IMG/VR virus record: IMGVR_UViG_3300037246_000452
Location: 25,219-89,218 of that record
Length of the DNA stretch: 64,000 nucleotides
From: a virus
Strand: one strand, 5' to 3'
The notes beneath the pieces were generated by a model. It was not told the origin of the DNA and did no database searches. It saw only the letters and a program-made list of their open reading frames with translations. This document shows, piece by piece, positions 522-64,000 of this stretch (its first letter is position 1; every line of letters starts with the position of its first letter). The position numbers were made by a program, and so were the translations under genes.

Positions 522-545
522 GGATTAATTGCAGTTAATTGCAAT

Positions 546-890
546 TTATTTCTTGTTGGTGTAATAGTCTCCTGTCTTACGGTTCATCAAGATTGCCTGA
601 TGATATTTCTTAATACGCCTTGCTGCATTCTCCAGCATGTGTGATGGAAAGAAGAACTGCTTATGTCCTTTACTATAGTCTGGGTAGGGTTCCTTAATAT
701 CAAGTCTTATATTCCATCTATACCCATACCTCTTCCTCTCGGGATGATCACCTATCCTACACATCCCAATCCTCGGGTCCGTAAAGCCCATATAACAGCT
801 ACTATTGTTCGTCTGTTTATGTACGTATGTTTCTATCCCTAAGTCCCTCAGATGCTCCCTGAGTCGCTTCATGTGTGCTAATGGTGTCAT
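546..890 (-). CDS. hypothetical protein
   Basis: 114-aa ORF, ATGA-coupled to upstream ORF. Confidence 0.7.
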   Translation of the reverse strand: MTPLAHMKRLREHLRDLGIETYVHKQTNNSSCYMGFTDPRIGMCRIGDHPERKRYGYRWNIRLDIKEPYPDYSKGHKQFFFPSHMLENAARRIKKYHQAILMNRKTGDYYTNKK

Positions 891-1321
891 GGTGCCTGTA
901 GCTTCCTGATCTCTACTGCAAGGTCATGTAAGAAGTCCCTCTCTGCTTGTACAAACGGGATGCAGCACTCTCCCACCTTATCATAAGGGGTTTGCATAAC
1001 TCCATGCTTATTCTCTTGATGTAGTACCCAATCCTTGTAAGGTGTTCCGCCACACCATTGCCGGCCAGTCTTAATTTTTACAGGGCAATACTTACAGGAA
1101 TACTGTCTCTGAGCTCCCCTAGCATAATGTTGTATCGTGAACTGTATACATAGAGGGCAGTTAGCTACTCCATTATCCTCACCCTCTCCTTCTAGTATCT
1201 TATCCCATTTACCTACGGACTCATCCAGTATCCCCAATACTGCCTGTGATGTATCTATTAGGCTTTCGGGCCTGTACCCTTCATTTTCCACACTTACCTC
1301 CACATTTGCACTTAGGTTCAA
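887..1321 (-). CDS. Cys-rich hypothetical protein
   Basis: CPLC...CKYCP...C motifs; packed in minus-strand operon. Confidence 0.65.
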   Translation of the reverse strand: MNLSANVEVSVENEGYRPESLIDTSQAVLGILDESVGKWDKILEGEGEDNGVANCPLCIQFTIQHYARGAQRQYSCKYCPVKIKTGRQWCGGTPYKDWVLHQENKHGVMQTPYDKVGECCIPFVQAERDFLHDLAVEIRKLQAP

Positions 1322-1742
1322 TCGATATCGTTATGTCCTTTTCATGGATGTGGAGCCGACAACCTGCATACACTTTATGCTTGTGCCAGAATTTCCGTGC
1401 CCCCAATTCTTTCAACTCTGCCTTGAAGGATTCCTTGGTAGGCCACTCCTTATTTGTGCCTATGTTGGCCTGTTTTATGGCATTAATGCATGCTCCTATT
1501 GCGGCCATGTGGGATAAGGTCACAACCAGTATATGAGCCATACCACTGTGCTCCCCTGTTTGCAGTACTACAAATGCCTTCTTATTTTTCATCTTTTCTC
1601 CCCTGAGTTTTAAGGTCTTCAATAACCTCGTTAATCTCTTGCGTCATACTTTGTATCTCTTCTTCTTTCTCTCCCTCGGTGAGGAAACGATACATCGGAC
1701 TATCGAAATACCTTCTTATGGTATCCTCCACATTCTTTGGCA

Positions 1743-2087
1743 TTATGCTACTATCCTCCCCGCTGCCTTGGCTGTTTCAGTATATTCTGCCATGGTCTTA
1801 TCTAAAGTTATGTACATATCCCTTTCAATAGGTAATCCGAAAGGTGGGAATCTTATTGCCTCAAGTTCTACCCTCGATACATATCCAATTTCCGCACAGC
1901 CTTGCCCCAAATCACATAGGCCAAAGAAGTTTCCTTCTTCTGGGTAGTACTCACTTAGCAACCATGTACATGCCCCGCCCCCAAACAATTTGATTACTGG
2001 TTTAAGGTGTGAGCCGTCCCCTTTCTCCCCGGCTTCAATACCGTTTTTAACAAGTTTCTTTTCTTGTGCTACTGTCATGATTTTCAT
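1743..2087 (-). CDS. DUF2958-like protein
   Basis: PVIKLF..GACTWLLSE...FFGLCDLGQGCAEIGYVS..ELE....GLPIERD matches the DUF2958 pattern. Confidence 0.8.
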   Translation of the reverse strand: MKIMTVAQEKKLVKNGIEAGEKGDGSHLKPVIKLFGGGACTWLLSEYYPEEGNFFGLCDLGQGCAEIGYVSRVELEAIRFPPFGLPIERDMYITLDKTMAEYTETAKAAGRIVA

Positions 2088-2108
2088 ATTGGCCTCCGGG
2101 GCTTTTGC

Positions 2109-2387
2109 TTACTTTCTAAAATGAAGGTCTGCCCAAGAATTACCGGACATGTCTACTTCCTCATTTAGTAATACCATATCACTCTCGGGAACACAAACTG
2201 AACCGCCCCCTTCACAAAGTATGTTATACCATATTTCTGATTTAGTGGATTCCGGTAATGGTGGCCTCTGCTCCTTAAACCATACATCACCTTCGGAGAA
2301 ACAAGCCTCTTTTTTGAATACTTTGCCTACATGTGAATGCCTCTTTGTTGCTACTGAATCTCCGTGAAAGAATTTTCCGTTGTCCAT
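2109..2387 (-). CDS. HspQ/YccV-like protein (start revised to MDNGKF at 2387)
   Basis: KFFHGDSV..H.GKV....FSEGDVWF....P....WYNIL......V.E resembles the YccV/HspQ pattern; SD GGAGGG before 2387; the longer ORF crosses a promoter and terminator. Confidence 0.55.
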   Translation of the reverse strand: MDNGKFFHGDSVATKRHSHVGKVFKKEACFSEGDVWFKEQRPPLPESTKSEIWYNILCEGGGSVCVPESDMVLLNEEVDMSGNSWADLHFRK

Positions 2388-2467: not shown

Positions 2468-2481
2468 GTAAATAATGCAAT

Positions 2482-2514: not shown

Positions 2515-2544
2515 AGTGTTCGTGCAGTTAATTGCAATCGCTAC

Positions 2545-6085: not shown

Positions 6086-6508
6086 TTATTTGCAGTTAAT
6101 TGCAATTAATAATCTCTTAATAAGACCTTCCTTCCATAGAGTACATTCGGAGTGGTACTCAGGTATAGGACTACCCTCTAGGTATCGATCTAGTGGCGTA
6201 TCATAGTTTGGATAGCCACTGCATACCTCAGGCCTGTCCTTGTGGATGCTACACCCCTCCTTGCTTCTCCTGAGACAAGTAAAGTACGCTGTTGGCCCAG
6301 TAGCCTCTCGGGCTGTCAGTAGGTAAGGATTTAATCTCTGGGCTGTCTCCTCAGGTATCATCACCCAGTTTTCTTGAATGAATAACATATCCCCACTTGC
6401 ACCATTATTCTTATCCATAAACCATCGAGCTTGATGCTCCCCGGTGAGGCGGATTACCTCGCAGCATTTGGTACACCTCTTACCTTCTATTATACAATGT
6501 TCACTCAT
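6086..6508 (-). CDS. YkgJ/CxxCxxCC-family cysteine-cluster protein
   Basis: C..RCTKCC ... CL....GCSIH.DRPEVCSGYP. Confidence 0.75.
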   Translation of the reverse strand: MSEHCIIEGKRCTKCCEVIRLTGEHQARWFMDKNNGASGDMLFIQENWVMIPEETAQRLNPYLLTAREATGPTAYFTCLRRSKEGCSIHKDRPEVCSGYPNYDTPLDRYLEGSPIPEYHSECTLWKEGLIKRLLIAINCK

Positions 6509-8626: not shown

Positions 8627-8800
8627 GGATTAAATGCAGTTAATTGCAATCTGGTACATTTTTATTGTACTGGTATATCTCCATCACTCCACGGTCCATC
8701 GTCATCATCGTTACCTTTAAACCATACCATTCCTGCTATAAATAATGCTATCAGTACTGCGTGTAATACCCTTGTCTGTAGTTCGTCCATACCTTCCTCC

Positions 8801-9019: not shown

Positions 9020-9048
9020 AACTTCCTCCTTATGCAATTAAGTGCAAC

Positions 9049-11624: not shown

Positions 11625-12458
11625 TTATCCTCCCATATTCTCTATCGTAGGGTCTACTCCATCCGCCAGCCCAGATATATCTACTTCTTTGGTTACTGAG
11701 AGCAACCTCTCCGACAGAGTGGGGTCATTTGCAATTAGTTGCACAGCTGCGGATAGTATATCATCTATTGACCTACTGTTAGCCTTACACATCTGACCTA
11801 AAGTCCTGAAGCCCTCCCTATCTTTAGCCTTCATCCTTAACCAGATATTCTCCTGCCCGTTGAAGTCAAAAATCATGTAGCCATAGTCCAGTGTATCTCC
11901 GAAGGTACTGAATAGGTGGTTCAACACTTTGCTCAGGTCATCTATAGTCTTGATCTCTTTTGCTGCCTGAGTAAACTCGGCTTGCATCTCCTTGGGAAGA
12001 CTCTTCTTGGTCTGTTTAATCAGTTTAGCAAACTCTGCATCATCTGCAAAACCGAAGGCATCCTGTAATAAGTCTTCTTCATACTTATCCGACACTGACT
12101 GATACATATTCATGAACTTCTCAGGGTCAAGCTTACCCCTGATCATATTCATCCTTACAACTTGAAAGGTCTCAGCATCCCCATCAAAGTTCGGGTCTGT
12201 AATCACCGTGCAGGGCACTGTCTCAAAGTCCAGATACTTAGCGGCCTCCCACCTGTGATGACCACCCACAATACGGTATGTTCCCTCATCAAGAGGTCTT
12301 ACAAAGATGGGGTCTACTATCCCTACCTGTGCATAGTTATCACAGAGCAGATCGAAAGATCGGGCATCCATCTTGTTCGGGTTGTTCTCATTCGGAACCA
12401 ACTGGTCTATAGGTAAGTCCACCCGCTTATGACTCTTTGTTAATTCTTTGGCATCCAT
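11625..12458 (-). CDS. ParB/Srx-like N-terminal domain protein
   Basis: L.PNENNPN...G.VDPIFVRP....YRIVGGHHRWEAAK.L....VP. Confidence 0.85.
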   Translation of the reverse strand: MDAKELTKSHKRVDLPIDQLVPNENNPNKMDARSFDLLCDNYAQVGIVDPIFVRPLDEGTYRIVGGHHRWEAAKYLDFETVPCTVITDPNFDGDAETFQVVRMNMIRGKLDPEKFMNMYQSVSDKYEEDLLQDAFGFADDAEFAKLIKQTKKSLPKEMQAEFTQAAKEIKTIDDLSKVLNHLFSTFGDTLDYGYMIFDFNGQENIWLRMKAKDREGFRTLGQMCKANSRSIDDILSAAVQLIANDPTLSERLLSVTKEVDISGLADGVDPTIENMGG

Positions 12459-12459: not shown

Positions 12460-13110
12460 TTAAACCTCCCTCAAAAAGTTTAATGTATATCCTTCTGCAT
12501 ACTTATGGCCACACTTGGCCCCAATCACTTTATGTACTGCTTCTATGTTTTCCATCGATCTTGGATGAACGCCACTCCTTGCCTCCCTCCGGTACTGCTC
12601 TATTGCAATTAATTTCACCATCAAGTCATTAGCAGTCATAGGGATGAAATAATTGGCACTGGTCGGTATTCCGTCAAACGCATGTGCTTCTAATATCCTG
12701 ACTACTCCCTGTAGGTTAGCAGGTCTTAGTGCTATCTTGCAAGCATGATTTAAAAATTTATGATCTTGGTTCATATCTGAGGCCGAGGGTATTACTACTT
12801 CGTGGGGACTAAAGGTACTTAATACTCCCTCTATCCTCTCCAGTATCTTATAGTAGCCTACTTGTGCCGGCTCTCCCTCGGTCAGGTTCATACATCTATG
12901 CAGCTGATAGCCCAGCTTCTCTTTAGCTTGCATAAAATCCAAGCACTGCTCTGCGTATGATTCATCCACGGTCTCCTTGCCATACTCATACACCCTACCG
13001 TACACTGTGAGTACAAATACTTCCCCGCCCTCACGAATTCTTCTAACAACTAAAGCCCCCGTTGAGAGGGCTTCGTCGTCCATATGTGCTGCTATTATTA
13101 AAGTTCTCAT
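12460..13110 (-). CDS. PIG-L/LmbE family deacetylase
   Basis: AAHMDDEALSTG metal motif, NQDH motif, C-terminal YAEGY. Confidence 0.85.
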   Translation of the reverse strand: MRTLIIAAHMDDEALSTGALVVRRIREGGEVFVLTVYGRVYEYGKETVDESYAEQCLDFMQAKEKLGYQLHRCMNLTEGEPAQVGYYKILERIEGVLSTFSPHEVVIPSASDMNQDHKFLNHACKIALRPANLQGVVRILEAHAFDGIPTSANYFIPMTANDLMVKLIAIEQYRREARSGVHPRSMENIEAVHKVIGAKCGHKYAEGYTLNFLREV

Positions 13111-14492: not shown

Positions 14493-15463
14493 GTTAATTG
14501 TTGCTCCCACTCCCATGCATCCTGCACCATAGAGGTCAGGTCACTGTGCTCAGGCTCCCACCCGAAACGACTTCTTATCCTCTTATTGTCGGCCACTGCT
14601 CGGGCTACATCCCCCTCCCTCCTTGGGGCGTGTATAACAGGTAGCATCATACCAGTGACTCTCTCCACCTCAACTACCATATCTTCCACTGAATACCCCT
14701 CACCCGTTCCTACGTTTAAGGTAATAGATGGGGTGTCCTCCTCTAAATACCTTACAGCCTGAATATGAGCCTCCGATACATCCTTTACATGGACATAATC
14801 GCGTAAGCATGTGCCGTCTGGGGTGTCATAGTCCGTACCGTAAATAGAAAGCTCTGACTTATTCTTAATGGCGTTGAAACAATTCTTTAGCAGGTGGGTT
14901 GCTTTGGGGTTGCGGGGGCCAATACCATTTACAAGGTCAGCTCCCAGCACATTGAAATACCTCAGGATTGCATACTTGATACCTATACGATCTGCCGCAC
15001 TGGTTATCATCTGCTCTCCCACCATCTTGGTCATGCCATAAGGATTGCTAGGGTTCAAAGGTGTAATTTCTGTCAGGGTCATACTACTTTTAGTTGCCCC
15101 ATACACTGCTGCCGTGCTGGAGAATATCAAGCGTTTAACACTTGTGCAGTTAATTGCACTGAGCAATGCGATTACTCCTCCGATGTTATTCTCATAATAC
15201 TTCAAGGGGTCTTCGACTGATTCCGGGGCTGAGAGGCTGGCAGCAAACATCATTACTGTATCTACTTTGTACTCATTAATCACTGACCTTACTCTGTCCA
15301 CCTCCTGAACTCTGGCTACCACACACCTAACATGCTTGGGGAGACTCGCAGGGTGGCCGGTTGAAAGGTCGTCGATCACTACAACTTCTTCCCCTTGATT
15401 TACTAGCTGGTGTACTACTGTACTGCCGATATACCCTGCCCCTCCTACTACTAATGTACTCAT
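14489..15463 (-). CDS. galE: UDP-glucose 4-epimerase
   Basis: GGAGYIGS, FSSTAAVYG, YGMTK (YxxxK), LRYFN, DYDTPDGTCLRDYVHV. Confidence 0.93.
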   Translation of the reverse strand: MSTLVVGGAGYIGSTVVHQLVNQGEEVVVIDDLSTGHPASLPKHVRCVVARVQEVDRVRSVINEYKVDTVMMFAASLSAPESVEDPLKYYENNIGGVIALLSAINCTSVKRLIFSSTAAVYGATKSSMTLTEITPLNPSNPYGMTKMVGEQMITSAADRIGIKYAILRYFNVLGADLVNGIGPRNPKATHLLKNCFNAIKNKSELSIYGTDYDTPDGTCLRDYVHVKDVSEAHIQAVRYLEEDTPSITLNVGTGEGYSVEDMVVEVERVTGMMLPVIHAPRREGDVARAVADNKRIRSRFGWEPEHSDLTSMVQDAWEWEQQLT

Positions 15464-20042: not shown

Positions 20043-20071
20043 ATTATACCTAATTGAATATGGTTTGTCAA
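20043..20071 (-). promoter_or_regulatory. sigma70-type promoter
   Basis: Perfect TTGACA-17-TATAAT; palindrome at 20080-20093. Confidence 0.85.
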
Positions 20072-20222
20072 GTAAATATTGCAGTTAATTGCAAATTACC
20101 CTAGACTATCTATCCATGCTGCAAAGGCATAACCGGCAATAAGCATTATAGGCACTGTAAATATATATACCCAAGTGTTATTACTCAACCATGCAACAAG
20201 CTTCTCCGCCCTTTCTTCACAC

Positions 20223-20965: not shown

Positions 20966-21098
20966 CGTTGCTTACCCGCTACTATAAAGAAGATGGGTAG
21001 TATTATCCCTATGCATACTATCACCATACCTACATACTCCATATTGTCCCCCTGTGCAATTAATTGCAACTACTTGCGTGATTTGGCCCCTACATACT

Positions 21099-43526: not shown

Positions 43527-43563
43527 AATAATACCTCCTCATGCAATTAATTGCAACAACAAT

Positions 43564-46595: not shown

Positions 46596-47564
46596 TTAAC
46601 GTATTAGCCATTCCGAGGAACCAGCTATAAAAGATAGTGAATCATATTGAGTTGTAATAGTCTGTCCGAGAGAACCATCTATAGTCTCTGCTCCGTTGCC
46701 GTCTATATAACAACCATTAGCCGCAGACATTAACTTGATCTCCATTAGCCGGCCTTTCTTATCTGCTACAGGTGGCATGGTAGTTGATACATTCCCCAAG
46801 GCCGCATCACATTCTATAAAGTAGATAGGGTCATCTGCAAAGTTTCCTATCGCATAATCCGCCGTTACTGTCGAAATCCCCGAGAAGGCGACCGCCCCTC
46901 CGGTATCAGAACTACCATTATTATCAATGGAAAACTGGCTTACATCATCAACCTGAGCATCAAACAAAAGCTGTGCGCCTGAACCAACCGCTATTTCATC
47001 TCTGCTTATAAGAAAATCGGTTCCATAGGCTGCATCAGTTTGGTCCCACATAGACTGAATAGCCAGCCCTATCGTTCCGGTACTGCCTGTGTGAGTACCA
47101 GATATCGTGACGGATTTTACACCCCCTGTAGTGAAAGTTCTCCCACCTTGAAGAGTTATAGCTTGGCTATTTACTCTTGATTGGATAGACGAAGCCTGTA
47201 CCCCGCCAATAAACCAGCCTAGACCAGTATTATCTATCCTAGCCTTACTTGCCCCTCCGACTTTAAAATTAAGGCCATAACTTGTACCGGGACTTGCTAT
47301 ATCCCACATATTGATCTCAAGACCAGTGTCACTACAACCAGCGCAATCAGTAGTATAATTTATTAAGACTGCGACGTCAGTTCCGGTAGCTTCGTCGAGA
47401 GTAGTGCTGAAAACACCTGACCCTAAGGTGACATCAGAGCCTTCTTGAATGCCCTCACCCACCTCCGCACCGCCTACAATAACAGTCAACCCTGCATAAG
47501 CTGGCATTGCAATTAATAGCAAAAACAATACCCCTACTATCAGGCTTCTCATAAATTTATTCAT
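46596..47564 (-). CDS. tail fibre-like protein with signal-peptide-like N-terminus
   Basis: C-terminal GAETIDG....QYDSL......W module seen in phage fibres; leader ending AYA. Confidence 0.55.
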   Translation of the reverse strand: MNKFMRSLIVGVLFLLLIAMPAYAGLTVIVGGAEVGEGIQEGSDVTLGSGVFSTTLDEATGTDVAVLINYTTDCAGCSDTGLEINMWDIASPGTSYGLNFKVGGASKARIDNTGLGWFIGGVQASSIQSRVNSQAITLQGGRTFTTGGVKSVTISGTHTGSTGTIGLAIQSMWDQTDAAYGTDFLISRDEIAVGSGAQLLFDAQVDDVSQFSIDNNGSSDTGGAVAFSGISTVTADYAIGNFADDPIYFIECDAALGNVSTTMPPVADKKGRLMEIKLMSAANGCYIDGNGAETIDGSLGQTITTQYDSLSFIAGSSEWLIR

Positions 47565-48183: not shown

Positions 48184-48240
48184 CGTATCCTCCTTATTTG
48201 AAATTAATTGCATTCGTTAATAAATAGGTATACCATACCT

Positions 48241-49380: not shown

Positions 49381-50159
49381 CTCAATTTAATAGTAGCTGG
49401 GTTTACTACAAAATCACTCGGATTGCTTTCGGTAATATCCCCTACAAAATCTAGGTAGGCTACTATAGGCTGAAGGGCTTGGCTTGATTCATTGGTATCT
49501 ATTATGGCCAACCCTGCTGCTGGTCCTATAGTTCCTGTGGCTGTCCATGTAACTGTCGGGGTCTTGAAATACACATCTTGACTTACAATGTCCCTTGCCA
49601 CTGTCAAAGCATCAATTACTTTACTATTTGAGGAGTAGCCTCCTCCAGTTTCTAATTCGTACCCTGTGACACCATCAGTATCCAGAGCTGCTCCGGGCGT
49701 AATTGTACCATCATCAATGTAAGTTTCTACCAGCCCCACTTCGTCAATTAGCTGGGCCTGTCCGGTACCCCTACCATATATCTTATACCCAGTAGCACCA
49801 TTCACCGCTGTCCAGTCTAGTTGCACCCTCTTACTTGGCCCAGATACTACAATGCTATCTTCAGAAGAGCCTAGTGTTTCTCCTACAGAATTTATTGCGG
49901 TTATTCTATAGAACTTTTCCCCAGCCGGCAGTGACCCTGTATCCAATTCTGTCAGGGTATCAATGCTCGGAGTTGCTAAACTGACAATACCTGTATTAGC
50001 AAAGGTGTGAGTTATCGGATTAAAGCTGAAGCCCGACTTCATTAATATGGCCTTTAGTTCATGCGGGGAACCCTGCCCTACTCCCTCATCTCCTAGATTA
50101 ATCTTCGCTGCAATTAACTGCACAAAGAATTCTAACGGTATACGTCCTACTGCTCCCAT
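49368..50159 (-). CDS. tail protein with inserted FN3-like domain
   Basis: LKAILM...F.FNP..H and EL..GGGY core interrupted by YRITAINSVGET...WTAV.GATGYKIY. Confidence 0.65.
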   Translation of the reverse strand: MGAVGRIPLEFFVQLIAAKINLGDEGVGQGSPHELKAILMKSGFSFNPITHTFANTGIVSLATPSIDTLTELDTGSLPAGEKFYRITAINSVGETLGSSEDSIVVSGPSKRVQLDWTAVNGATGYKIYGRGTGQAQLIDEVGLVETYIDDGTITPGAALDTDGVTGYELETGGGYSSNSKVIDALTVARDIVSQDVYFKTPTVTWTATGTIGPAAGLAIIDTNESSQALQPIVAYLDFVGDITESNPSDFVVNPATIKLRWEP

Positions 50160-50168: not shown

Positions 50169-53100
50169 CTATAATAAGTATCCATCTAATTGTTTACGTC
50201 CACGCCCTACTATAACGATCTCCTCAGGATTGTTGAATTGCCCTTTTCCATTCCCGAAGCTACCAAAGTTCTTAACGTACTTGGTTACACCGTTCTTAAT
50301 GTAAAAGCCGTTGATTCGATTATTCTTATGATCAACTGAATAAAAATTTGGCCTGTAGTACTCTACTGTTCTCAGGGTAGTCGTAACGCCTGCGGTATTG
50401 GTCACAGTCAATCTCACTAGGTATGTCCCAGAAGAGCTATACACATGGATTGGATTACTCTCATTTGAATACGTCCCATCCCCAAAGTCCCAGAAATACG
50501 TATTAGTCAGTAGGGTTGCATACGGTATATCTGCTACGGTATCCCCTGCATAAACAGTACTTAAAGTCATATTCAAGTCATCTGTAATATCAGCGATACC
50601 ATACTCATCATATCCTGTCCTCTGATAAAGATCAAGGCCACTCTGGGAGCCTCCACTTCTCACAGTTCTTAATGTTGCAGTAGTATTGTCTTGAATCGAT
50701 TCAACTACGTACTCCTCTCCCCCTGCAAGTATAGTCATCAACGGGGAAAGCTCCGTAAGAAATAGCGTCCCAGTTCCTACAAGCTGATCACTGCTAGTAG
50801 TCAGTGCAACAACTCCAGTCCTTACGGTGTAATGCGGAACCCTTATCCTGTCACTGGTGGACAACTCAGAAGTAAAAAGTGTTCCAGTTCCTACTACCAC
50901 CACACTATCATTAATTAAAGCCAGTGTTCCAGTTGCCCCCGTGTAATTAGGCAACTGAGTATTCACAAAGCTTATGGCACCTGCCGGGTCATTCTCAATG
51001 GCAACATAAAATGGAAGTCCAGACTCATCCTCCTCCACATAAGGCTTCGACAACATTAATTTGGTATCACTGATAATACCAAGTACCTTGTATGGTACTC
51101 CATTAATTACAAGACTCATACCCTTTTGTAGGTCCGTGGTAAAGGTCGTTCCAATTCCCACCACAAGAGTACTACCTTGAATAACACTTATAGTCCCGCC
51201 CAAAGCCGTAGACTGACCTAGAGTTGACACACTGGCTGTTACCCCTAACTCGGTCACCCCTAACGTCTTTGTTACAGTCTTGCCATCCTCTGTGGCCTCT
51301 CCTACTGGATATGATAGGGTTGCATTGAAGTCATCTTCTACAGACTCTACCGTATAGAGAAGATCATCAATTGTTATCTCCGTCCCCTGTGTCAGCTCCG
51401 ATACAAATGAGGTTCCTGTTCCTACTATCTGATCACTACCATTGGTTACTGCAACACTTCCAGATACATCTACCTGAATAGTTCTGCCTCCTGTGTATAC
51501 TGTTGTCAAGGTCATCTGCGTTGCGCTTTGTATCGCCTCTACATTGTATTTTACCCCACCAATTACAATCTCGCTCCCGATCTCTAACTGACTTTGAAAG
51601 TCAGTATTGGAGCCTATTACTATATTACTGCCTGCTGCTAACTGCAACGTCCCTATCAGTATAGTGGTTCCAACTCCAGCTGCTACCTCAAAAGCTGCTG
51701 TCTGTATGTCTTCTTCATCGGCAGTTGCTTTCACTGTAATAGTCTGCATGGTAGTTACACTTTCATTATTAACAACTATTGTCACCCGCACAGTATACGT
51801 CCCTGCCTCTGTAAACGTAAAACTAGGACTTGCATCCGTTGACTGAGTTCCAGCTGCCTGTAGGCTGAAGGCTTCTCCGGTGGTATCTACTCCCGCATAT
51901 ACACTGGTTAGGGTCATGTGAGTATCATCTTCAATACTCTCAATTACATAGGTTAATCCGGCTACCTTTATCATCTGACCTACAGTAAATTCCGAGGTAA
52001 ACAGCGTGGAGTCTCCTACCACTTGATCACTTGCCTGCTCCAAGGTCAGGGTTCCGGTCTTGGTGGTTACTGCCCCATCACCAAAATCCCACAAAGCCTC
52101 TCCATCTAAGAGGTCTGACCCATTACCAAAATTAATCGTGGCAGGCACAACCCCATTGGTACTCTCTTCTGGGTAGTTGGTTGCAACAACTCCCCCTACA
52201 ATAGACTCGCCCCCAAACGTCTCAAGTAGCGTAAGGTTAGTGTCATCTTCTATTTCAGCAATCAGGTACAGTGTCCCTTCTAGGTCTAGTAGCATACCCA
52301 CTATCAACTCCGTAGTAAACTTTGTCCCAACACCAACTACATCCTTGCTGCTAGTGGTGATACTCATAGTCCCTGTGAGGACTTTAGTCTTCTGGTACAG
52401 TATCAAGCCCGAATCGGTATCTCCGGGGTAATTTGCAACTAATTGCAAACTCAGATTTGTAGCTATGGAATCTATCACCCCTTCTTCTCCTCCGATCACT
52501 ACAGTCTCACCAACATTCAATTCGGTAGTGAATAAAGTGCCTACTCCTACAACTGACTTTAAGCCATTGGTTACTGATACTGTCCCAGTCATTTCTTTTA
52601 ATCCAGCCAGTACAGGAGCGTTATCACTTGTATTAGGTACAAGGTCAACCGTGTAGTCTGCCCCTATAATTACTATTTGGCTACTGCTGTTAATCCCGTT
52701 TGTTCCTGTGAACTTGGCAGTAGTCTTGAAGTTATCCAGCCCTGAATCTGTGGTATCTCCGTACTTATTCATCAAGGTCATATGCGTATTATCTGCAATG
52801 GTCGATATAATGTACTTAATACCTTCGATCACAATAGCCCCACCCTCTACGTAATCAGTGGTGAAAGTAGTCGTGGTGCCTACAACATCCTTGCTATTCT
52901 GCGTCACCGCAATAGTACCTGTCAGTTTCTCGGTCATACGTATCCCAATCTGCTCACTATGGTTCTGCCCCTTATATACTGTAGCCAAAGTCATATGTGT
53001 GTCGTCAGTAATAGTATCAATGACATACTCAAGCCCTGCAATGATAAGAGTCTCCCCTACTGCCAGTTCCGTAGTAAATGAGGTTCCTGCGCCTACTACT

Positions 53101-54842
53101 GTGTCCTCCCCATAAGTGACTTCAAGCGTACCTGTCATCTTCGGCATAGTGTAGGTAGTTAGGGTTGTTACATATGTGCCTTCATTTGTATATTCGTGAG
53201 TCGGGTTTGCTTCCAAAGATATAGTGCCGTCCCCAAAGTCCCACACTGCCACCTCAAATGTTCCAGAGGTTGTACTGGTAAAATTCACTGCAATAGCATG
53301 GGTAGGAATAACATCTTCTGCATCCACCCCAGCATAATTAGTGGATAAAACTATGTGCGTGTCATCAGTAATGGTATCAATGGTATACGCCACCCCCTCC
53401 AATACGATGGTTTTTCCTTCCTCAAATTCTGTAGTAAAATTCGTACCAAATCCTACAATATTTGCGCTACCGTTGGTTACAGTCACCAACCCTGAGCCGG
53501 CCACAATATTCTTTCCAGATGCCACCTTAACTGCTTTCAGTCCTGAGTCGGTGGTGCCTGCATACGTTGCAGTTAATTTCAAACTCGTGTCACTGATCAC
53601 CTCTTCAATCACATATATAACTCCAGCTATCAGTATTGAATCTCCTAAAGTACATTGCGTGAGGAAAGACGTTCCGTCCCCTGCCACCATGTAGCTCCCA
53701 TTTACCACACTAATAGTCCCAGTCAACTCCACGATGTCATCTATTGTCAGCACCTTATACATGAAGAGTCCTGAATCAGTGCCCCCAGCATAATTAGTAG
53801 TCAAAGTCATATTCGTATCGTCTGCAATAGTATCAATGGTGTATACTTTCTCCCCTATGATAATATACCCTCCTTCAACGTATTCTGTAGTGAAGGCTGT
53901 ATCGGTACCCACCAATGCGGCACTCCCATTTGTAGCTGCAGCTGTACCACTGCCTTTAGCTACAGTCTTGTCAATGCTAATCTCTGCATTAAACGAGGCT
54001 ACTGGGGGTGCTGGTATTGAACATGTAACCGTCAAGTCTGTTGGGTCTGCTGAAACTCCACCTATCCCCTGGTATACCTTAAAGGGCCCTATAAAAGAAC
54101 TAGGCAAATACACCTCACCGTTAACTGCTACCGTCCCTCCACGAAATTGTCCTGAGTAGGCTATAGATTGCACGTAGGCATATGGGCTTGTCTTATTAAA
54201 AATCCTTGTCTCGGATGTTGATGTCCTGATATACAGATACCCCTGATCTACCCCTATAGAAGATACGGAGTCTAGCGTATTAATAGTGGCTACATACACA
54301 TAGGTACTTTGATCGTAGATATATATATTATCGTCCGTAGTATTAGAAATATAGATATAGTCTCCATCTAACGCTATATTTCTAGCTCCATTAGCCGCCC
54401 CTATCGGTGTAAGATTGGTAATAAAGGCAAACGTAGATTTATTATAAATAGCTATTCTGTTATTAGTATTATCCGTTATAAATATTCTTGTATCATCTAC
54501 TTCGATTGTCTCTGGGAAATTGACTGATGGACTAAACTCATCTACCCTCAATCCAGTAGAAATACTATATCTCTGAAGTATATCCCCCCTTAAAACGTAA
54601 ATATAAGTATCATCTACAGCAAAACCATTAATACCTGTTCCTGTAGGGTTACTAAGCGTCAGGCCTCCTTCAGGAGTTCCATCCATTTGATAATAGTGAA
54701 TAGCATAGGGTGAAGATGGAACACCACCTCCATTTATTCCCCAATAGATTCTATCCGCTGTAACAGCTACGCCACCATTAGGGTCAATCTCTTGGGCTAT
54801 AATCCCATGCACGAACTCCCTTTTATAATCAAATAACGCCAT
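50169..54842 (-). CDS. large tail/adhesion protein: beta-propeller, 3 PKD domains, 13 repeats of about 70 aa
   Basis: WDFGDG three times; 13 GT..V..GS..V.G.GT.F.TE modules; propeller blades at both termini. Confidence 0.8.
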   Translation of the reverse strand: MALFDYKREFVHGIIAQEIDPNGGVAVTADRIYWGINGGGVPSSPYAIHYYQMDGTPEGGLTLSNPTGTGINGFAVDDTYIYVLRGDILQRYSISTGLRVDEFSPSVNFPETIEVDDTRIFITDNTNNRIAIYNKSTFAFITNLTPIGAANGARNIALDGDYIYISNTTDDNIYIYDQSTYVYVATINTLDSVSSIGVDQGYLYIRTSTSETRIFNKTSPYAYVQSIAYSGQFRGGTVAVNGEVYLPSSFIGPFKVYQGIGGVSADPTDLTVTCSIPAPPVASFNAEISIDKTVAKGSGTAAATNGSAALVGTDTAFTTEYVEGGYIIIGEKVYTIDTIADDTNMTLTTNYAGGTDSGLFMYKVLTIDDIVELTGTISVVNGSYMVAGDGTSFLTQCTLGDSILIAGVIYVIEEVISDTSLKLTATYAGTTDSGLKAVKVASGKNIVAGSGLVTVTNGSANIVGFGTNFTTEFEEGKTIVLEGVAYTIDTITDDTHIVLSTNYAGVDAEDVIPTHAIAVNFTSTTSGTFEVAVWDFGDGTISLEANPTHEYTNEGTYVTTLTTYTMPKMTGTLEVTYGEDTVVGAGTSFTTELAVGETLIIAGLEYVIDTITDDTHMTLATVYKGQNHSEQIGIRMTEKLTGTIAVTQNSKDVVGTTTTFTTDYVEGGAIVIEGIKYIISTIADNTHMTLMNKYGDTTDSGLDNFKTTAKFTGTNGINSSSQIVIIGADYTVDLVPNTSDNAPVLAGLKEMTGTVSVTNGLKSVVGVGTLFTTELNVGETVVIGGEEGVIDSIATNLSLQLVANYPGDTDSGLILYQKTKVLTGTMSITTSSKDVVGVGTKFTTELIVGMLLDLEGTLYLIAEIEDDTNLTLLETFGGESIVGGVVATNYPEESTNGVVPATINFGNGSDLLDGEALWDFGDGAVTTKTGTLTLEQASDQVVGDSTLFTSEFTVGQMIKVAGLTYVIESIEDDTHMTLTSVYAGVDTTGEAFSLQAAGTQSTDASPSFTFTEAGTYTVRVTIVVNNESVTTMQTITVKATADEEDIQTAAFEVAAGVGTTILIGTLQLAAGSNIVIGSNTDFQSQLEIGSEIVIGGVKYNVEAIQSATQMTLTTVYTGGRTIQVDVSGSVAVTNGSDQIVGTGTSFVSELTQGTEITIDDLLYTVESVEDDFNATLSYPVGEATEDGKTVTKTLGVTELGVTASVSTLGQSTALGGTISVIQGSTLVVGIGTTFTTDLQKGMSLVINGVPYKVLGIISDTKLMLSKPYVEEDESGLPFYVAIENDPAGAISFVNTQLPNYTGATGTLALINDSVVVVGTGTLFTSELSTSDRIRVPHYTVRTGVVALTTSSDQLVGTGTLFLTELSPLMTILAGGEEYVVESIQDNTTATLRTVRSGGSQSGLDLYQRTGYDEYGIADITDDLNMTLSTVYAGDTVADIPYATLLTNTYFWDFGDGTYSNESNPIHVYSSSGTYLVRLTVTNTAGVTTTLRTVEYYRPNFYSVDHKNNRINGFYIKNGVTKYVKNFGSFGNGKGQFNNPEEIVIVGRGRKQLDGYLL

Positions 54843-55812: not shown

Positions 55813-58582
55813 TCACCCGATTCACATTTGTACCATTTTTCTGTGGTGGTGTCAACTCCAAACTCTGCGCTCCAGCTAAGTTAAAGGTCATCCATCGCCT
55901 CGCTGCAACCCCCTCATTCTCCAAGTCGGTATAGGGTGGAAACTCCTGATCTGGTGTTACATAATCTGGATGGAGTACCTGAGATGTTATATTCAACTCA
56001 TGGTATACTTTTACCGGAAACACATCGAATCCCACCATTAACATATTAGCTGCTTCTGACGTGAATATCCGAGTAATATGATTATTTTCCTGTTCGAGAT
56101 CATCCCCGTCCTCATTGTACCCTATATTCATATACGGTCCAAGGGCATACATATCAATGTTAGCTATGGGAGCACCTACATATTCCCAACCGGCCACACT
56201 CAACCTATTCTCCCTAATCTCATGCGTATACTCTAGTTGAGTCTTTGTGCCATTAATTGCAATCCAATACTGAACCTCACTTACAATCACTGTCCTTCGC
56301 AACTGGGCATAAAAATACTCAGACACATTAAATACCCGCATAGTCTTGTAGGGTAGCCATTCCATGCTGTGAGACTTATAAACCACCTTCTTATACAGAA
56401 CCATATCAAACTTGTTATCTACGTGAGAATGAAGTATTTGGTAATCTGTTGGTCTAATTAGTATAGGACCATTATGGTCTGCTCGGATACCTGCGTCTAC
56501 ATTCTGCCCGTAAAGCTTAATAACATCCTGCCACCCATCAGAATCTACCTCAACCTCGGATACCATAAGACTTGCCTTCTGCTCCGTGAACTCCGTATCT
56601 TTCTCCTTCCTAACATATGTGATCTTATCTCCCATACAGGTATGGATGAGCACCACATCATTTTTAATATACTCTTGTCCTGACTTGGTGGTATATCCAC
56701 TAAAATCAGTTTCTTTTCCATATAGTGTATTAGCATCAATATTATAGGCCAGCTCAACCTCACTTCTAGTATAGCTTACACCTTCACTTTCCTGCTCCTG
56801 TAACTCAGTATCATACACTCCTGCCGTCATTGGTGTGGCCAGCTTGTTACCCCCCCCATCTTCAAACGTGATAGCTTGTATGAGATTCTGCGTTGCATCG
56901 TTCTCTGGGTCAAACTTCCCCATACCAGCCAGTGCCACAGGAAACTCAGGTGAAGCATTCCCCCCTATGACTGTAGACTTACGTTCAGTGAAGCGAGAAT
57001 TGCCCGTAGTGCCTCCCGGTGTATCTATCGGGGTTGGTAGGTCTCTTTCCTCGGTATATGTCCGTGTGAAGGCATCTCCTCCCTCAGGAATGATTATCTT
57101 GCTGTTCCAGATTAACCCTGCCTTAGGAAATATGTCGGTAAAGGATGCCGTTCTCCAGTTATCTGCTAAGATGATTCCACCCTCGGCCTTAATTGCCTGA
57201 TTCACGGAGATAATACCAGTCTCAGTATACCTGCACACATCAGATGTTGGTTTCATAGCATAAGGACTTTGAGTCAAACTTAACGCTGGAAAAATGAAGT
57301 CATAAGAAAAGCCCCTCCCCGGGATAGACACGCTGGCTGCTATCCATATTTCATCTTCGTTACTCTGGTTGGTCATGAACCGAGCCTTCAGACCCTGCTG
57401 CATCTTCATTGAGATTCCTGTTGCTGTTTCCGGTAGTCCCATCCCCTCAGCAAAGGTATATCTATATTTGAAGTCCGTAAAGTCCGTGTAGCTGGTTCCT
57501 CCCTCTGGTATATCAAGGTCAGTCACTAGGATTGCATACTTCCCATCATCGATTAAGTCCCACCCTCCAAGATCAGTTGTTTCGATCATCTCTCCTTTCT
57601 TCAGGATGTAGTACCGCCTCTCATATTCAAGAGTTGTATCCCCTGAGAAACATACGACTAGAAGGTTACATGGCCTTGGATTAGTCTCAAAACCTATCAC
57701 CTTTGGTATAGGCTGAAACAGTTGAGTTACACTGCCATCGCTCCGGGTTGCTTCAGCTGTCAGAATTCCCTGCTCGAATTGTACAAGTATCCGATCTCCT
57801 ACTGCAAAGGCATCCCCGTCACAATCCATGTAGGTCACCAGCACCCGATTATACACTCTCTGCTGATTACAATTAAGTTGCTGATTCGTGTCTTCTATGT
57901 GGTACAGTTCTTCATCCAATTGGACAGTACAAAGATTACTATCATCCTTAGCAAATGCTATTAAAGTTGCTGCTCTATATATTGGCCTCCATTTCTTCGC
58001 CCCGGGCAGTAGACTCCAGTTGTAGAATACAGCTGCCCCTGTCATAATTGCTGCTGGTACTACCTTTCCATCCGTAACCTGAGTATACTCTGCTACCCCC
58101 TCAACTCCCCCGGGTTTAATCATAATCTCGTGATTATCTTCTCTTGCTATTTCAACTGTCCCGATCTCACCGGCCAAGGCAGTATTATAGTCAGCACACC
58201 ATGCCGTCTTTTCTTCTCCGTCTGCAAGCTCCTTAACCCTCTCTAACCTCTGCTCATACCCAGTAATCTCCAGTTCTATTAAAGCCACATTCCTTGTGGC
58301 TATATCAAGAGCTCTAGTCAGCCCATCTACAGTTGCAGATAATTCCCTAAGTACTTCCAGCGGTTCTTTGGCAACTATAGCAAGATTCAATACAGTAAGC
58401 GCAGCTGTACGCCTATTACGTGTACCTGCAAGCTCATTATCAAAAGCTATATTGGTTTCCCTCAAGACCACAATCCTCTGCTCATATTCAGCGACAAGGG
58501 CTGTTAATATAGCCTCGTCATACACGTACTTAATCTTATATTCCCCTGCACCTAAATTATCAATTATAACACCTTTACCCAT
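55781..58582 (-). CDS. tail tip/baseplate protein
   Basis: MGKG.I....G.G.Y, coiled coil, AWCAD, YM.C...AF..GD, PKVIGF; follows the TMP and distal-tail-like gene. Confidence 0.6.
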   Translation of the reverse strand: MGKGVIIDNLGAGEYKIKYVYDEAILTALVAEYEQRIVVLRETNIAFDNELAGTRNRRTAALTVLNLAIVAKEPLEVLRELSATVDGLTRALDIATRNVALIELEITGYEQRLERVKELADGEEKTAWCADYNTALAGEIGTVEIAREDNHEIMIKPGGVEGVAEYTQVTDGKVVPAAIMTGAAVFYNWSLLPGAKKWRPIYRAATLIAFAKDDSNLCTVQLDEELYHIEDTNQQLNCNQQRVYNRVLVTYMDCDGDAFAVGDRILVQFEQGILTAEATRSDGSVTQLFQPIPKVIGFETNPRPCNLLVVCFSGDTTLEYERRYYILKKGEMIETTDLGGWDLIDDGKYAILVTDLDIPEGGTSYTDFTDFKYRYTFAEGMGLPETATGISMKMQQGLKARFMTNQSNEDEIWIAASVSIPGRGFSYDFIFPALSLTQSPYAMKPTSDVCRYTETGIISVNQAIKAEGGIILADNWRTASFTDIFPKAGLIWNSKIIIPEGGDAFTRTYTEERDLPTPIDTPGGTTGNSRFTERKSTVIGGNASPEFPVALAGMGKFDPENDATQNLIQAITFEDGGGNKLATPMTAGVYDTELQEQESEGVSYTRSEVELAYNIDANTLYGKETDFSGYTTKSGQEYIKNDVVLIHTCMGDKITYVRKEKDTEFTEQKASLMVSEVEVDSDGWQDVIKLYGQNVDAGIRADHNGPILIRPTDYQILHSHVDNKFDMVLYKKVVYKSHSMEWLPYKTMRVFNVSEYFYAQLRRTVIVSEVQYWIAINGTKTQLEYTHEIRENRLSVAGWEYVGAPIANIDMYALGPYMNIGYNEDGDDLEQENNHITRIFTSEAANMLMVGFDVFPVKVYHELNITSQVLHPDYVTPDQEFPPYTDLENEGVAARRWMTFNLAGAQSLELTPPQKNGTNVNRVNGVCMFSGGD

Positions 58583-58613
58583 CTTGCCCTCCGTGACATT
58601 AATTGCAAAAGTA

Positions 58614-61584: not shown

Positions 61585-62024
61585 GGCACTTGACCCTGAC
61601 CCGTCAGCTGATTAATCTTATTCGTTGCCTTGTAGAACTCAATCGGATATGTCCTCGCGAATCTAGCTGCCATACCCTCATCAAATTTAGGTTCAACGCT
61701 ACCTAACACCAGTGTCTCTATCCGAATTACAATCTCATTATGGGTATCTCCATCTTCCACGCCCCCCAACATCGCCTTAAATCCCTTAATGTTCTCAGAC
61801 TTTGACTTACTTGCTATGGCTTCAATCATTGCCATTAGCTGATTCGTATTTGATACTGCGTCCTGTGCTATTGCGAACTCGTTCCCTGTTAGTCCCCTGA
61901 CTATGAGTTTAGCATCTTCCTTACTGCCCTCGAACCATTCTGCCATATCAGGAACCAGAACCTCCCCCTCGCGGGGGGAGAATTCTGAGCTCATGAATTT
62001 GATGGCGTCAAACTTTTTAGCCAT
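61542..62024 (-). CDS. tail assembly chaperone (gpG-like)
   Basis: Between tail tube and TMP; ends just after a slippery site. Confidence 0.75.
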   Translation of the reverse strand: MAKKFDAIKFMSSEFSPREGEVLVPDMAEWFEGSKEDAKLIVRGLTGNEFAIAQDAVSNTNQLMAMIEAIASKSKSENIKGFKAMLGGVEDGDTHNEIVIRIETLVLGSVEPKFDEGMAARFARTYPIEFYKATNKINQLTGQGQVPGKRKSSGKKVKSS

Positions 62025-63019
62025 TATGTGAGAACCTCAGTACCTTCTTCACTGGCAGATATCGTGCATTCCGCATTGAGGACTCCATCAGCCGGCCATG
62101 ATCTTGAAATACCGAACTTACCTTGGACAGGCAAATGCGGAGTATCATACTTATTCGGGAAGAACTTAAACCACAAGAGCATTCCCTTAAGCTTAACAAC
62201 TGTGTCCGATAGGCCGTCCTTCAACTTGGCATTGAACCCACCCTGACCAATAGACTCAGATGAGGCTCCTACTGCCTTACCATATATCTGCTCAGAAGAA
62301 ACTGAGTGTGTGACTTCAGGCGCCTTGAAGTTGGTTACATTCACAAGGTCGGTGAAGATAGGGTCATAAACCTTACCAAAGACCTGCTTAGGTATAACGC
62401 CTGTGTGGATTTTAGAAAGTGCAATGTCAAATACAACATTACCGTTGGCCATATCCTCACTGAATGTTGGATAATCGTACCTTTCCTGATGCTGATTAGG
62501 GGTATCAAATATCTCATCGGCGCTGATAGGAGCTGCCACATTACCTTTCGTGATAACTTGCGCTATCTCTATGGAGTCTGTCGGGATAAGAGGTGGTCCA
62601 CCATTTCCGTCTCTTGTAGTGCTGAGAGATACACCCTCTGTACCCGTTACAACCGCTATGGCCTGAGCGTTGTCTACAGTAATACTATTTACCATGTAGT
62701 AATCAGCCGTGGATGCCCTTGTTATCCCATCACCTGTACTTGCCCCTACAGTCTCTTTTACTCCCGCCTGATAGGCTGTAGCAGCTGCCACATCTACCTG
62801 ATCATTGGTGAGTCCAACCTCAGGTATTACTGCTCCACCTGTAATAAGACCATCAGGCCTAATATCAGGTTCCTTTCCTGCCACATTAGACAGTAGGGAT
62901 GCGGCTGTTTCAAATGTCAGCTGATCTCCTGAATCACTGAGAGCTGCCATCGCCTTAAGCGTCTGACCATTCTCGATTTGGATTTTGGCTTTTGAGCCAG
63001 TATTTATTTGTCCACTCAT
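62024..63019 (-). CDS. major tail (tube) protein
   Basis: 331 aa, upstream of chaperone and TMP; P E..HSVSS.Q.YG..WFKFFP. Confidence 0.65.
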   Translation of the reverse strand: MSGQINTGSKAKIQIENGQTLKAMAALSDSGDQLTFETAASLLSNVAGKEPDIRPDGLITGGAVIPEVGLTNDQVDVAAATAYQAGVKETVGASTGDGITRASTADYYMVNSITVDNAQAIAVVTGTEGVSLSTTRDGNGGPPLIPTDSIEIAQVITKGNVAAPISADEIFDTPNQHQERYDYPTFSEDMANGNVVFDIALSKIHTGVIPKQVFGKVYDPIFTDLVNVTNFKAPEVTHSVSSEQIYGKAVGASSESIGQGGFNAKLKDGLSDTVVKLKGMLLWFKFFPNKYDTPHLPVQGKFGISRSWPADGVLNAECTISASEEGTEVLT

Positions 63020-63075
63020 TTTCTTATCCCCCTTTTGAAATTAATTTTAAACTAACCGTCTTCAACCCCACCCTC

Positions 63076-63324
63076 TTAAGCAACCATCTTCATACTGCTG
63101 TTCTTAACTCCTGCTATATCCCTGAGGGCATTAATAATGTCACGATCAAAATCTAATCGGAATTCCACTGGAACTTGTATAACCAGCCCTGTGTCTCTTA
63201 GAAGTGCATACTCCTTTTTGTTAAGTATTCTTGGCTGCCTAGCCTCATCACCTATAAATACACTAAACCGATCTCCTAAGGAGCCATCGGGTTTAGTGTT
63301 CCATACTCTCGCACCAACCTCCAT
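63076..63324 (-). CDS. stand-alone homolog of a TerL internal segment
   Basis: 37 of 68 residues identical, no gaps, to TerL residues about 322-389; SD GAGGAGG. Confidence 0.8.
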   Translation of the reverse strand: MEVGARVWNTKPDGSLGDRFSVFIGDEARQPRILNKKEYALLRDTGLVIQVPVEFRLDFDRDIINALRDIAGVKNSSMKMVA

Positions 63325-63334
63325 AATCTCCTCC

Positions 63335-63559
63335 TCAGTACCCTTTATAGTATTCGTTCAAGGTTCTACTCCTCACCCTACGCATCACTCCTTTACAAAA
63401 ATCACAGTTAGCTTCTGCGGGGCATAAGTCTGCCGGGTCTACATGTACTAACATAAAGCCCATCGCCTTATCAAAAGTACCATGATGCACCTCGATCACC
63501 CCGGCCTCTTTCTTAATCGGGTCATACGTCACCAAGTTAACCTTCCTTCTCGTATCCAT
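63335..63559 (-). CDS. paralog of 8801..9019
   Basis: Shared protein motifs, 60 identical bp, and shared SD context AGGAGGAAGTTATG. Confidence 0.8.
   Translation of the reverse strand: MDTRRKVNLVTYDPIKKEAGVIEVHHGTFDKAMGFMLVHVDPADLCPAEANCDFCKGVMRRVRSRTLNEYYKGY
63391..63450. repeat. 60-bp perfect direct repeat, copy 2
   Basis: Identical to 8851-8910. Confidence 0.95.
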
Positions 63560-64000
63560 AACTTCCTCCTATACATTTGAAATTAATTTCAAATTACTTA
63601 GATTTAGATTCCTTGGTCTCAATGACCCCCTCTTCCTTTAATACCTTCAGGAACGCTGTGGTCACTAGGTAACTCTTACCCTTGGTAAACGTCTGCTTAC
63701 CTTTACCCTCGCCCTGTGGCTCCCCACAGTAATTCTTTTTAAACTTTGCTGTCAGTGATACTCCCATAATACCCTCCCTTATTTATTCTTCTGTTACATT
63801 ATCCAACGGAACATATATCTTATACCGTTGTACGTAGGCAAGCACCTCAATAAAATGTGCTTTGTCTCCCTTCTTGGCCGGCTTCTTCTTAATTGCCAAA
63901 TTCACCGGCTGCTCTAAAACGAAGCCCCACTCAATATAACCTGATGCTTCCCGGGGAGTCCTTATAGCTCTTCGTACCTTATCCAAGATTATAGTCGTCT

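Follow-up and report, generated by a model that had tools for sequence, protein, structure and literature searches.

What does a phage gain from carrying one 14-bp palindrome every few kilobases, between its genes as well as inside them, and which protein reads it? The question is raised by a stretch of 64,000 nucleotides (the window), which covers bases 25219-89218 of an IMG/VR virus record; the record is 89,218 bp long and carries 127-bp direct terminal repeats. The sole public run containing this phage genome is a marine sediment metagenome, and 20 kb of the genome gave no Megablast match among GenBank phages. A first-pass annotation, made from the letters alone, had noted about 28 such sites across the window, and had named three genes whose products might bind them. 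We put at roughly 0.55 the probability that a conserved phage protein docks as a dimer on these DNA palindromes of 14-16 bp, the protein most likely being the product of gene g62, a reading that rests on sequence comparison and structure models.

The genome has a guanine-cytosine (GC) content of 43%, with a strong excess of C and T on the plus strand. Every credible gene lies on the minus strand, so the contexts of the sites must be read there. Along this unidirectionally transcribed genome lie about 20 strong promoters that are nearly identical, (c)TTGACAAAc-N17-TATAAT, with A/T-rich tracts upstream of them. The comparison took in about 90 related phages. Where handles are needed, G000 is the genome of this phage, and G002 and G003 are relatives from the IMG/VR loci L133-L141.

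Number, spacing and context of the sites

The palindrome TGCAATTAATTGCA was found at 27 window sites with up to two mismatches, compared with a mean of 0.37 and a maximum of 4 in 100 dinucleotide shuffles. The whole 89,218-bp genome has 37 sites with a mean gap of 2.4 kb, and the lattice noted in the first-pass annotation was confirmed. Its degenerate pattern matched 18 distinct window sites (27 strand-matches), where 0.01 were expected. When the two central bases were left free, again with up to two mismatches, 45 genome sites were found against 4.4 expected. The spacing of these 45 sites is more even than chance (coefficient of variation (CV) 0.66, P = 0.0006; largest gap 4,984 bp, P = 0.0014), and the evenness was upheld against a null that preserves the split between intergenic and coding sequence.

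About 19-21 of the 37 sites are intergenic, although non-coding sequence makes up only about 10% of the genome. Near-consensus TTGACA-N17-TATAAT promoters follow four sites at a distance of 7-8 bp, and about ten sites lie 10-20 nt before a start codon, mostly 0-8 nt past the preceding stop codon. In three places (window 40252, genome 8622 and genome 23045) the first triplet of the TGAAAT variant is the TGA stop of the upstream gene. The three contexts described earlier (upstream of a -35 box, before a Shine-Dalgarno sequence and within a gene) were found again on the minus strand, except that the site proposed before the tail-tube gene is a three-mismatch relic (Table 1). An obligatory promoter element was ruled out, because 16 of the roughly 20 strong promoters lack a site.

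The intragenic sites had been said to impose peptides such as QLIA, QLTA and AINC on the encoded proteins, and this was seen again. The 16-18 intragenic sites use just the two reading frames that avoid the TAA stop of the palindrome, and encode peptides of the (L/V)QLIA, QLTA and AIN(C/F) types. We compared them with shuffles of synonymous codons, which preserve every protein and the codon usage. At up to one mismatch there were 16 intragenic sites versus 0.89 +/- 0.86 in 300 shuffles, about 18-fold more, and at up to two mismatches there were 18 versus 3.17 +/- 1.39.

Only 3 of 31 sites in this genome are perfect palindromes; the other 28 have one half-site change that is not compensated in the other half. 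An RNA hairpin formed by the site would be worth -2.5 kcal/mol, and 0 for the commonest variants. Because the half-site changes are uncompensated, the hairpin is negligible, and sites are found upstream of promoters and deep in genes, the element appears to act as double-stranded DNA. These features support sites read by a symmetric, presumably dimeric, protein, as the first-pass annotation had supposed, rather than RNA elements. It is hardly credible that the element works as an RNA hairpin ahead of the ribosome-binding site to control translation, processing or stability: about ten sites do abut Shine-Dalgarno sequences and the hairpin reaches -5.2 kcal/mol with G/C flanks, but the commonest changes destroy the pairing, sites also lie upstream of promoters and far inside genes, and the centre is itself palindromic, which a loop would not need. 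RNA hairpins and elements of the repetitive extragenic palindromic (REP) kind show compensatory pairing and a stable hairpin, in contrast to the uncompensated variants here, at -2.5 to 0 kcal/mol.

The lattice in related phages

The same lattice, with a spelling specific to each lineage, was found in distant relatives of 43-61% GC. Cultured phages with the lattice are DLP5 of Stenotrophomonas (centre TCAA), KarBoss, PG28 and SIO-2 of Vibrio, RcZahn and RcDurkin of Rhodobacter (centre CG), and RHph_Y1_11 (centre AA/TT) and L338C of Rhizobium, the last with 50 copies of TGCAAC-NN-GTTGCA. At up to one mismatch there were 35 sites in DLP5, 25 in KarBoss, 19 in RcZahn, 49 in G003, 43 in G002, 33 in PG28, 25 in SIO-2 and 49 in RcDurkin. 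An exact-match scan of IMG/VR returned several contigs with many copies. Five of them, with 5-48 sites each, are syntenic relatives of 57-61% GC with 27-55% protein identity. In most relatives of 57-61% GC the A/T-rich palindrome is the most over-represented 10-mer.

Almost all lattice relatives have their genes on one strand and evenly spaced sites. In DLP5, for example, the CV of the spacing is 0.46, and none of 4,000-5,000 simulations was as even. The intragenic share ranges from 18% in G003 to 74% in DLP5 at a similar density; the conserved feature is a site every few kilobases and not its place relative to genes. Near the 3' end of the ParB-like gene g78, DLP5, RHph_Y1_11 and this phage have a site at the same place. 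It encodes QLIA here and QSIA and QQIA in DLP5 and RHph_Y1_11; the peptide tracks the spelling of each phage, and the protein is thus dictated by the DNA site. At the junction before the RecA-like gene, a site was found in 5 of 7 genomes. The geometry site-N7-9-(-35) recurs in G000, KarBoss, G003, SIO-2, RcZahn, L338C and RcDurkin, lineages whose hosts differ widely.

Asymmetric variants are polar within a genome, with opposite senses in G000 and KarBoss. A transcription-linked polarity common to them was ruled out. Perfect palindromes vary in number: 3 of 31 sites in G000 and 0 of 25 in KarBoss, but 26 of 49 in G003, where they are dominant.

A candidate reader, g62

Among the three candidates of the first-pass annotation, the protein encoded at 19120-19998 (g62) was clearly the best by predicted fold, co-occurrence with the lattice, a site at its own promoter and covariation of helix and site. 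The g62 family has more than 340 proteins and no Pfam domain. Each of the 11 tested lattice genomes has a member, SIO-2 and L338C among them; none was found in Arthrobacter phage BeatusComedenti, in which there is a g78 homologue and no palindrome lattice. Orthologues in cultured phages are gp62 of DLP3, "gp_067" of DLP5 and VPEG_00074 of SIO-2.

A site lies upstream of the g62 orthologue in 9 of 10 genomes, usually as site-N8/9-(-35) and in the lineage's own spelling. When 23 core genes were compared, a conserved upstream site was seen only at g62 (8 of 9 by tblastn) and the head protease (9 of 10), where it precedes the head protease/capsid operon; the other core genes had one in at most 44% of genomes, and g78 in 0 of 7. 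The only perfect TTAA-centred site of DLP5 is the one at the promoter of its g62 orthologue.

Members of the family are encoded in 80 IMG/VR loci. In 41 of these, a palindrome, mostly of the TGCAA-N4-TTGCA kind, has at least 4 exact copies in at most 20 kb, and in 21 of the 41 a copy lies within 200 nt upstream of the g62-family gene. After removal of duplicate contigs, 36 loci remained for a comparison of the putative recognition helix (YRKAMY) with the half-site. A non-canonical helix (not YRKA) accompanies a changed half-site (Fisher P = 0.0097, kinship ignored). Six half-sites differ strongly, and all of them occur with non-canonical helices (6 of 11 versus 0 of 25 with canonical helices, P = 0.0002, again ignoring kinship). 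Examples of changed half-sites with a non-canonical helix are GGAAAT, GGCAAT, TCCAAT, GCGACC and TTGACC.

The AlphaFold model of g62 has a predicted local distance difference test (pLDDT) score of 81. It consists of a disordered N-terminal tail rich in lysine and alanine (K/A-rich), a helical domain (amino acids 37-170 of the 270-amino-acid form), an acidic/glycine linker and a C-terminal strand-helix-helix (beta-alpha-alpha) module. The helical domain aligned with the DNA-binding domain of ParB on parS (6s6h_B; Z 8.2, 112 residues, root-mean-square deviation 3.6), with Spo0J (1vz0; Z 7.4), with the DNA-binding domain of KorB on its operator (1r71; Z 6.8, 107 of 114 residues; another KorB, Z 5.6) and with SopB, VirB and P1 ParB (Z 4.3-4.5). 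Neighbours in BFVD and in the ESM Atlas, where a g62 homologue was the query, were DUF3102-type proteins and proteins with a ParB-type helix-turn-helix (HTH). The C-terminal module looks ribbon-helix-helix-like in the model and probably dimerises. No ParB_N match was found in g62, whose N-terminus is the disordered tail; lacking this CTPase domain, g62 cannot be a CTP clamp alone. The predicted protein is, in sum, a K/A-rich tail, a ParB/KorB-type HTH domain without the ParB CTPase and a probable dimerisation module.

Several observations weigh against this assignment. The best fold match of the domain is not to ParB or KorB but to an unrelated Rubisco chaperone domain, Raf1 (Z 9.5), and the structure tool cautions that a Z below 8-13 can reflect a common helical arrangement. 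Since Raf1 scores above ParB and KorB, the fold evidence is only moderate. Nothing significant came from Pfam for 40 family members, or from a profile search of the PDB with the alignment of g62. The assignment of the putative recognition helix rests on alignment to the model, the co-occurrence and helix-site statistics ignore shared ancestry, and mild half-site variants (TGAAAT, TGACAT and TGCAGA) are also seen at loci where the helix is canonical. In SIO-2 no site was found upstream of the g62 orthologue by the start call used. The g62 orthologue is not among the virion proteins of DLP3 (PMC7326821). As for control of transcription, just 4 of the roughly 20 strong promoters have a site, most sites are far from any promoter, and in DLP5 26 of 35 sites are intragenic.

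G002 and G003 encode a second, shorter paralogue (open reading frames (ORFs) of 191-216 amino acids) that matches the g62-family profile across the predicted DNA-binding domain.

Other candidate readers

The second protein named in the first-pass annotation, the ParB/Noc/KorB-like g78, could in principle read the lattice by a KorB-like mechanism, in which CTP-dependent clamps load at the palindromes and slide, so that sites every 2-5 kb would cover the genome. It has a ParB_N domain, and Foldseek matched it over about 190-225 columns to Noc (7nfu, E 2e-9), to ParB-CTP structures and to KorB (8qa9); its G-x-x-R-x-x-A-like box could be aligned to the GERRxRA box of Noc. The conserved lattice site inside its own gene could be counted in its favour. 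The parS site likewise sits inside spo0J. The spacing of 2-5 kb would also suit a sliding range of about 1.5 kb (PMC11790492). However, the family does not follow the lattice: SIO-2 has the lattice and no candidate, L338C has the lattice and only generic ParB_N matches, and the lattice-free BeatusComedenti has a homologue (E 2.5e-64). Furthermore, the segment aligned to the Noc HTH is acidic (consensus G-F-A-D-E-A-E-F) and modelled with lower confidence, no genome has a site upstream of the gene, and its fixed place beside terL points to packaging. We therefore consider g78 an unlikely reader, and keep it as a candidate for either a rival reader or a packaging factor. A locus search with g78 as the single query gave remote matches only. 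In Vibrio phage PG28 the g78-like ParB gene (W06:12990-13718) has a TAG stop within the match.

The third, MerR-like protein (26271-26711) did not survive the comparison. It was rejected because several lattice genomes lack it: RcZahn, G002 and G003 do not have it between helicase and recA, and it was undetected in RcDurkin and L338C. The HTH_36/DnaD_N-like gene at 35654-36619 is not conserved, and was ruled out as well.

Possible roles of g62 and the lattice

If g62 is the reader, it would be transcribed from a strong host-type promoter whose -35 box is 8 bp downstream of a site, and the protein would then occupy the about 40 sites. At the -35 boxes abutted by a site, those of its own promoter and three others, it would sit at about -44 to -57. 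In bacterial promoters, the C-terminal domain of the RNA polymerase alpha subunit contacts the A/T-rich UP element at that position. From this we infer that bound g62 would modulate initiation and most likely repress it. The simplest reading would be that g62 represses its own gene and also controls the head operon and a small number of early promoters. With most sites far from promoters and most promoters free of sites, promoter control would not be the whole function, and the lattice should serve something genome-wide. With even copies at junctions and within genes, no base would be more than about 2.5 kb from a g62 foothold. In such places the protein might act as a roadblock or insulator between the unidirectionally transcribed genes, or might organise or tether the phage DNA through its basic tail.

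Two other roles were weighed against this operator function. It is possible, though we think it somewhat doubtful, that g62 reads the lattice and the main purpose is physical: the phage chromosome or episome would be organised, condensed, tethered or partitioned, for instance by riding on the nucleoid in a carrier state. The even spacing, the maintenance of intragenic sites at an amino-acid cost, the remoteness of most sites from promoters and the K/A-rich N-terminal region of variable length would all fit, as would the absence of a tyrosine integrase from the five genomes searched and the reported persistence of DLP5 as a phagemid (PMC5834331, PMC7326821). However, no ParA-type ATPase of family PF13614 was found in G000, G002, G003, DLP5 or KarBoss with positive controls, other ParA families not being searched; the two best-conserved site positions are at a promoter or lead an operon, and genes on a single strand with about 20 strong promoters suggest a lytic phage. 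That the palindromes are enzyme targets (site-specific nicks as in T5, DNA-modification marks, or packaging or recombination signals) is considerably less probable. Regular spacing and the polarity of asymmetric variants within a genome would suit an enzyme, an HNH gene adjoins g62, a kinase/phosphatase-like cluster and sugar-modifying genes are conserved, and DLP3 DNA resists 15 restriction enzymes (PMC7326821). But G000 and KarBoss show opposite polarities, the HNH gene lacks conservation, and resistance to 15 different enzymes points to general rather than motif-specific modification; the fixed 7-9 bp to the -35 boxes and the site before g62's own gene suit an operator.

The docking of g62 dimers on the lattice might belong to a distinct, widespread phage system, in which a descendant of the ParB/KorB domain without the CTPase reads an "address" every 2-5 kb, promoter control being only one output beside silencing, insulation, condensation or protection. 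We offer this tentatively. The host has practically no copies of the palindrome, so the phage could treat its own DNA as a separate, protein-marked body.

The lattice points to basic, undescribed biology of a large group of siphoviruses of 80-110 kb, in which an A/T-rich 14-bp palindrome is kept at the same density across phages of 43-61% GC, even at an amino-acid cost. The cultured hosts of these phages include Vibrio, Stenotrophomonas, Rhodobacter and Rhizobium, and several of the phages (DLP3/DLP5 and the SIO-2/VHS1-like vibriophages) are under study for phage therapy or aquaculture. The outcome of the analysis is a specific and testable pairing of a protein family outside Pfam with a site, together with cultured systems. 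What is new is the distinction between two ParB-like candidates, the operator-promoter arrangement at g62 and before the head operon, the covariation of recognition helix and half-site, and the peptide that follows the site inside g78. These bear on how a one-strand 90-kb phage chromosome is regulated and organised, and on the unexplained dyad repeats of Cluster O phages.

Positions of the sites and neighbouring genes

Table 1. Lattice sites, promoters and candidate reader genes in the window
Feature	Position	Strand	Remarks
Site	530..543		8 bp upstream of -35 box
Site	2523..2536		8 nt past stop; then terminator-like hairpin, then promoter
Site	6091..6104		7 bp upstream of -35 box; overlaps last codons of gene 6086-6508
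Site	8635..8648		8 bp upstream of -35 of perfect TTGACA-N17-TATAAT promoter
Site	9033..9046		2 nt past terL stop, 13 nt before small ORF
ParB-like gene g78	11625..12458	-	adjoins 215-amino-acid gene and terL
Site in g78	11730..11743		peptide QLIA
Site in PIG-L deacetylase gene	12604..12617		peptide KLIA
Site in epimerase-like gene 14489-15463	15145..15158		peptide AINC
Candidate reader g62, 292 amino acids	19120..19998	-	alternative start 19932; predicted K/A-rich tail, ParB/KorB-like domain, linker, C-terminal module
Site in g62, 2 mismatches	19456..19469
Predicted sigma70-type promoter of g62, TTGACA-N17-TATAAT	20043..20071	-	consensus match
Operator-like site at g62 promoter	20080..20093		8 bp upstream of -35 box
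Perfect palindrome	21055..21068		12 nt before possible ATG, or within doubtful 48-amino-acid ORF
Site	25928..25941		directly past stop of gene 25942-26256, 20 nt before RecA-like gene
Site in superfamily 2 (SF2) helicase gene	27883..27896		peptide AINF
Site	29274..29287		close to 3' end of primase gene
Site in intein-bearing DnaB gene	33927..33940		at codon 8
Site in gene 35654-36619	35753..35766		peptide QLTA
Site, 2 mismatches	36631..36644		11 nt upstream of HTH_36/DnaD_N-like gene 35654-36619
Site overlapping TGA stop of upstream gene	40252..40265		next start 13 nt on
Perfect palindrome	43542..43555		8 nt past stop, 15 nt before gene 43056-43526
Site in gene 46596-47564	47508..47521		peptide LLIA
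Site	48199..48212		start of gene 47575-48183 15 nt downstream
Site in gene 49368-50159	50109..50122		peptide QLIA; among few with reversed polarity
Site in 1557-amino-acid tail gene	52434..52447		peptide QLVA
Site in 1557-amino-acid tail gene	53568..53581		peptide KLTA
Site in 933-amino-acid tail gene	56248..56261		peptide AING
Site, 2 mismatches	58594..58607		11 nt upstream of 933-amino-acid tail gene 55781-58582
Relic of proposed tail-tube site	63036		3 mismatches
Site, 2 mismatches	63578..63591		2 nt past stop, about 18 nt before small-ORF ATG
Strong promoters, examples	40744, 38950, 34954, 31227, 24385, 19108, 2467	-	consensus

Other features of the genome were noted in passing. The DnaB-type helicase gene (window 31851-33965, minus strand) is split by an intein that contains an HNH endonuclease (matches to Pfam DnaB_C, Intein_splicing and HNH_3), and relatives align with it over just 30-40% of its length. 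Small paralogous ORFs starting M-(G/D)-(M/T)-R-R-K-V-N-L follow the sites at 9033, past terL, and at 63578, near the tail genes. At genome 16985-18363, an RtcB RNA ligase gene adjoins genes for tRNA-Asp and tRNA-Pro, which suggests a tRNA-repair counter-defence. Directly 5' of the site at genome 14786, a stretch at about 14800-14850 resembles a tRNA T-arm, the 3' half of an acceptor stem and CCA; neither ARAGORN nor Rfam made a call there. A conserved cluster at genome 12997-16906, beyond the window and common to DLP5, RcZahn and KarBoss, has a truncated PPDK_N-like kinase, two matches to the PHROG "thymidylate synthase" family 17568 and a 367-amino-acid protein of unknown function. It may be a DNA-modification module, in view of the restriction resistance of DLP3 DNA.

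Comparison with known systems

We found no paper describing this lattice or naming the g62 family. A full-text search for the motif strings gave chance primer matches only, and the papers found on DLP3, on Rhodobacter phages and on vibriophages do not mention such a repeat.

In Cluster O mycobacteriophages such as Corndog, which infect Actinobacteria, a 17-bp dyad repeat, TGTTCGG-N3-CCGAACA, is present in more than 30 copies (PMC4351075). Roughly a third of the copies lie in coding sequence, with no consistent orientation, and the authors predicted a dimeric binder (PMC4351075). The likeness, with more than 30 copies of one dyad repeat genome-wide, partly in coding sequence, and ParB-like proteins present, is one of kind. 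The sequence is another one, and that paper reported neither a candidate reader nor even spacing nor an autoregulatory arrangement. The stoperators of Cluster A phages (L5 gp71 type) are dozens of repressor sites, many of them in short intergenic gaps, which stop transcription, and the repressor also acts on the early promoter (PMC9283540). Dozens of sites distributed across a phage genome are a common feature. However, a stoperator is asymmetric, binds a monomer and has an orientation that follows transcription, whereas the sites here are palindromic and their polarity is inconsistent between relatives; stoperator phages are temperate with an integrase or parABS, whereas neither a tyrosine integrase nor a ParA of family PF13614 was found here.

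Noc sites are dispersed over the chromosome. The ParB-parS and Noc-NBS systems have palindromes of 14-16 bp read by an HTH of the fold predicted for g62 (6s6h_B, Z 8.2). They differ in the CTPase domain and in sliding, which were not found for g62. Also, parS sites cluster near the origin and work with ParA, whereas the sites here are spread evenly over the genome.

The plasmid RK2 carries 12 KorB sites on 60 kb. KorB and its operator OB on this IncP plasmid (PMC11790492; PDB 1r71, 8qa8) resemble the present case in that a 13-16 bp palindrome is scattered over a replicon, here with 37 sites on 89 kb. "OB proximal" operators precede promoters by 4-10 bp, among them the promoter of the operon that encodes the regulator itself, and others are far from promoters (PMC11790492); the gap to the -35 box here is 7-8 bp at 530, 6091, 8635 and 20080, the last being the g62 promoter. 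The predicted g62 domain aligns with the operator-bound domain of KorB (Z 6.8, 107 of 114 residues), although the unrelated Raf1 domain scores higher (Z 9.5) and no sequence-level match was found. There are differences: g62 is without the ParB_N/CTPase domain, and the family of g78, which has ParB_N, does not track the lattice; a KorA-like or ParA/IncC partner was not identified here; and the about 40 sites on 89 kb are evenly spaced, often intragenic, and on a phage rather than a plasmid. We did not file g62 as a KorB-type member, because the defining CTPase domain is lacking. In layout and in predicted fold, KorB with its OB operators is the closest known system.

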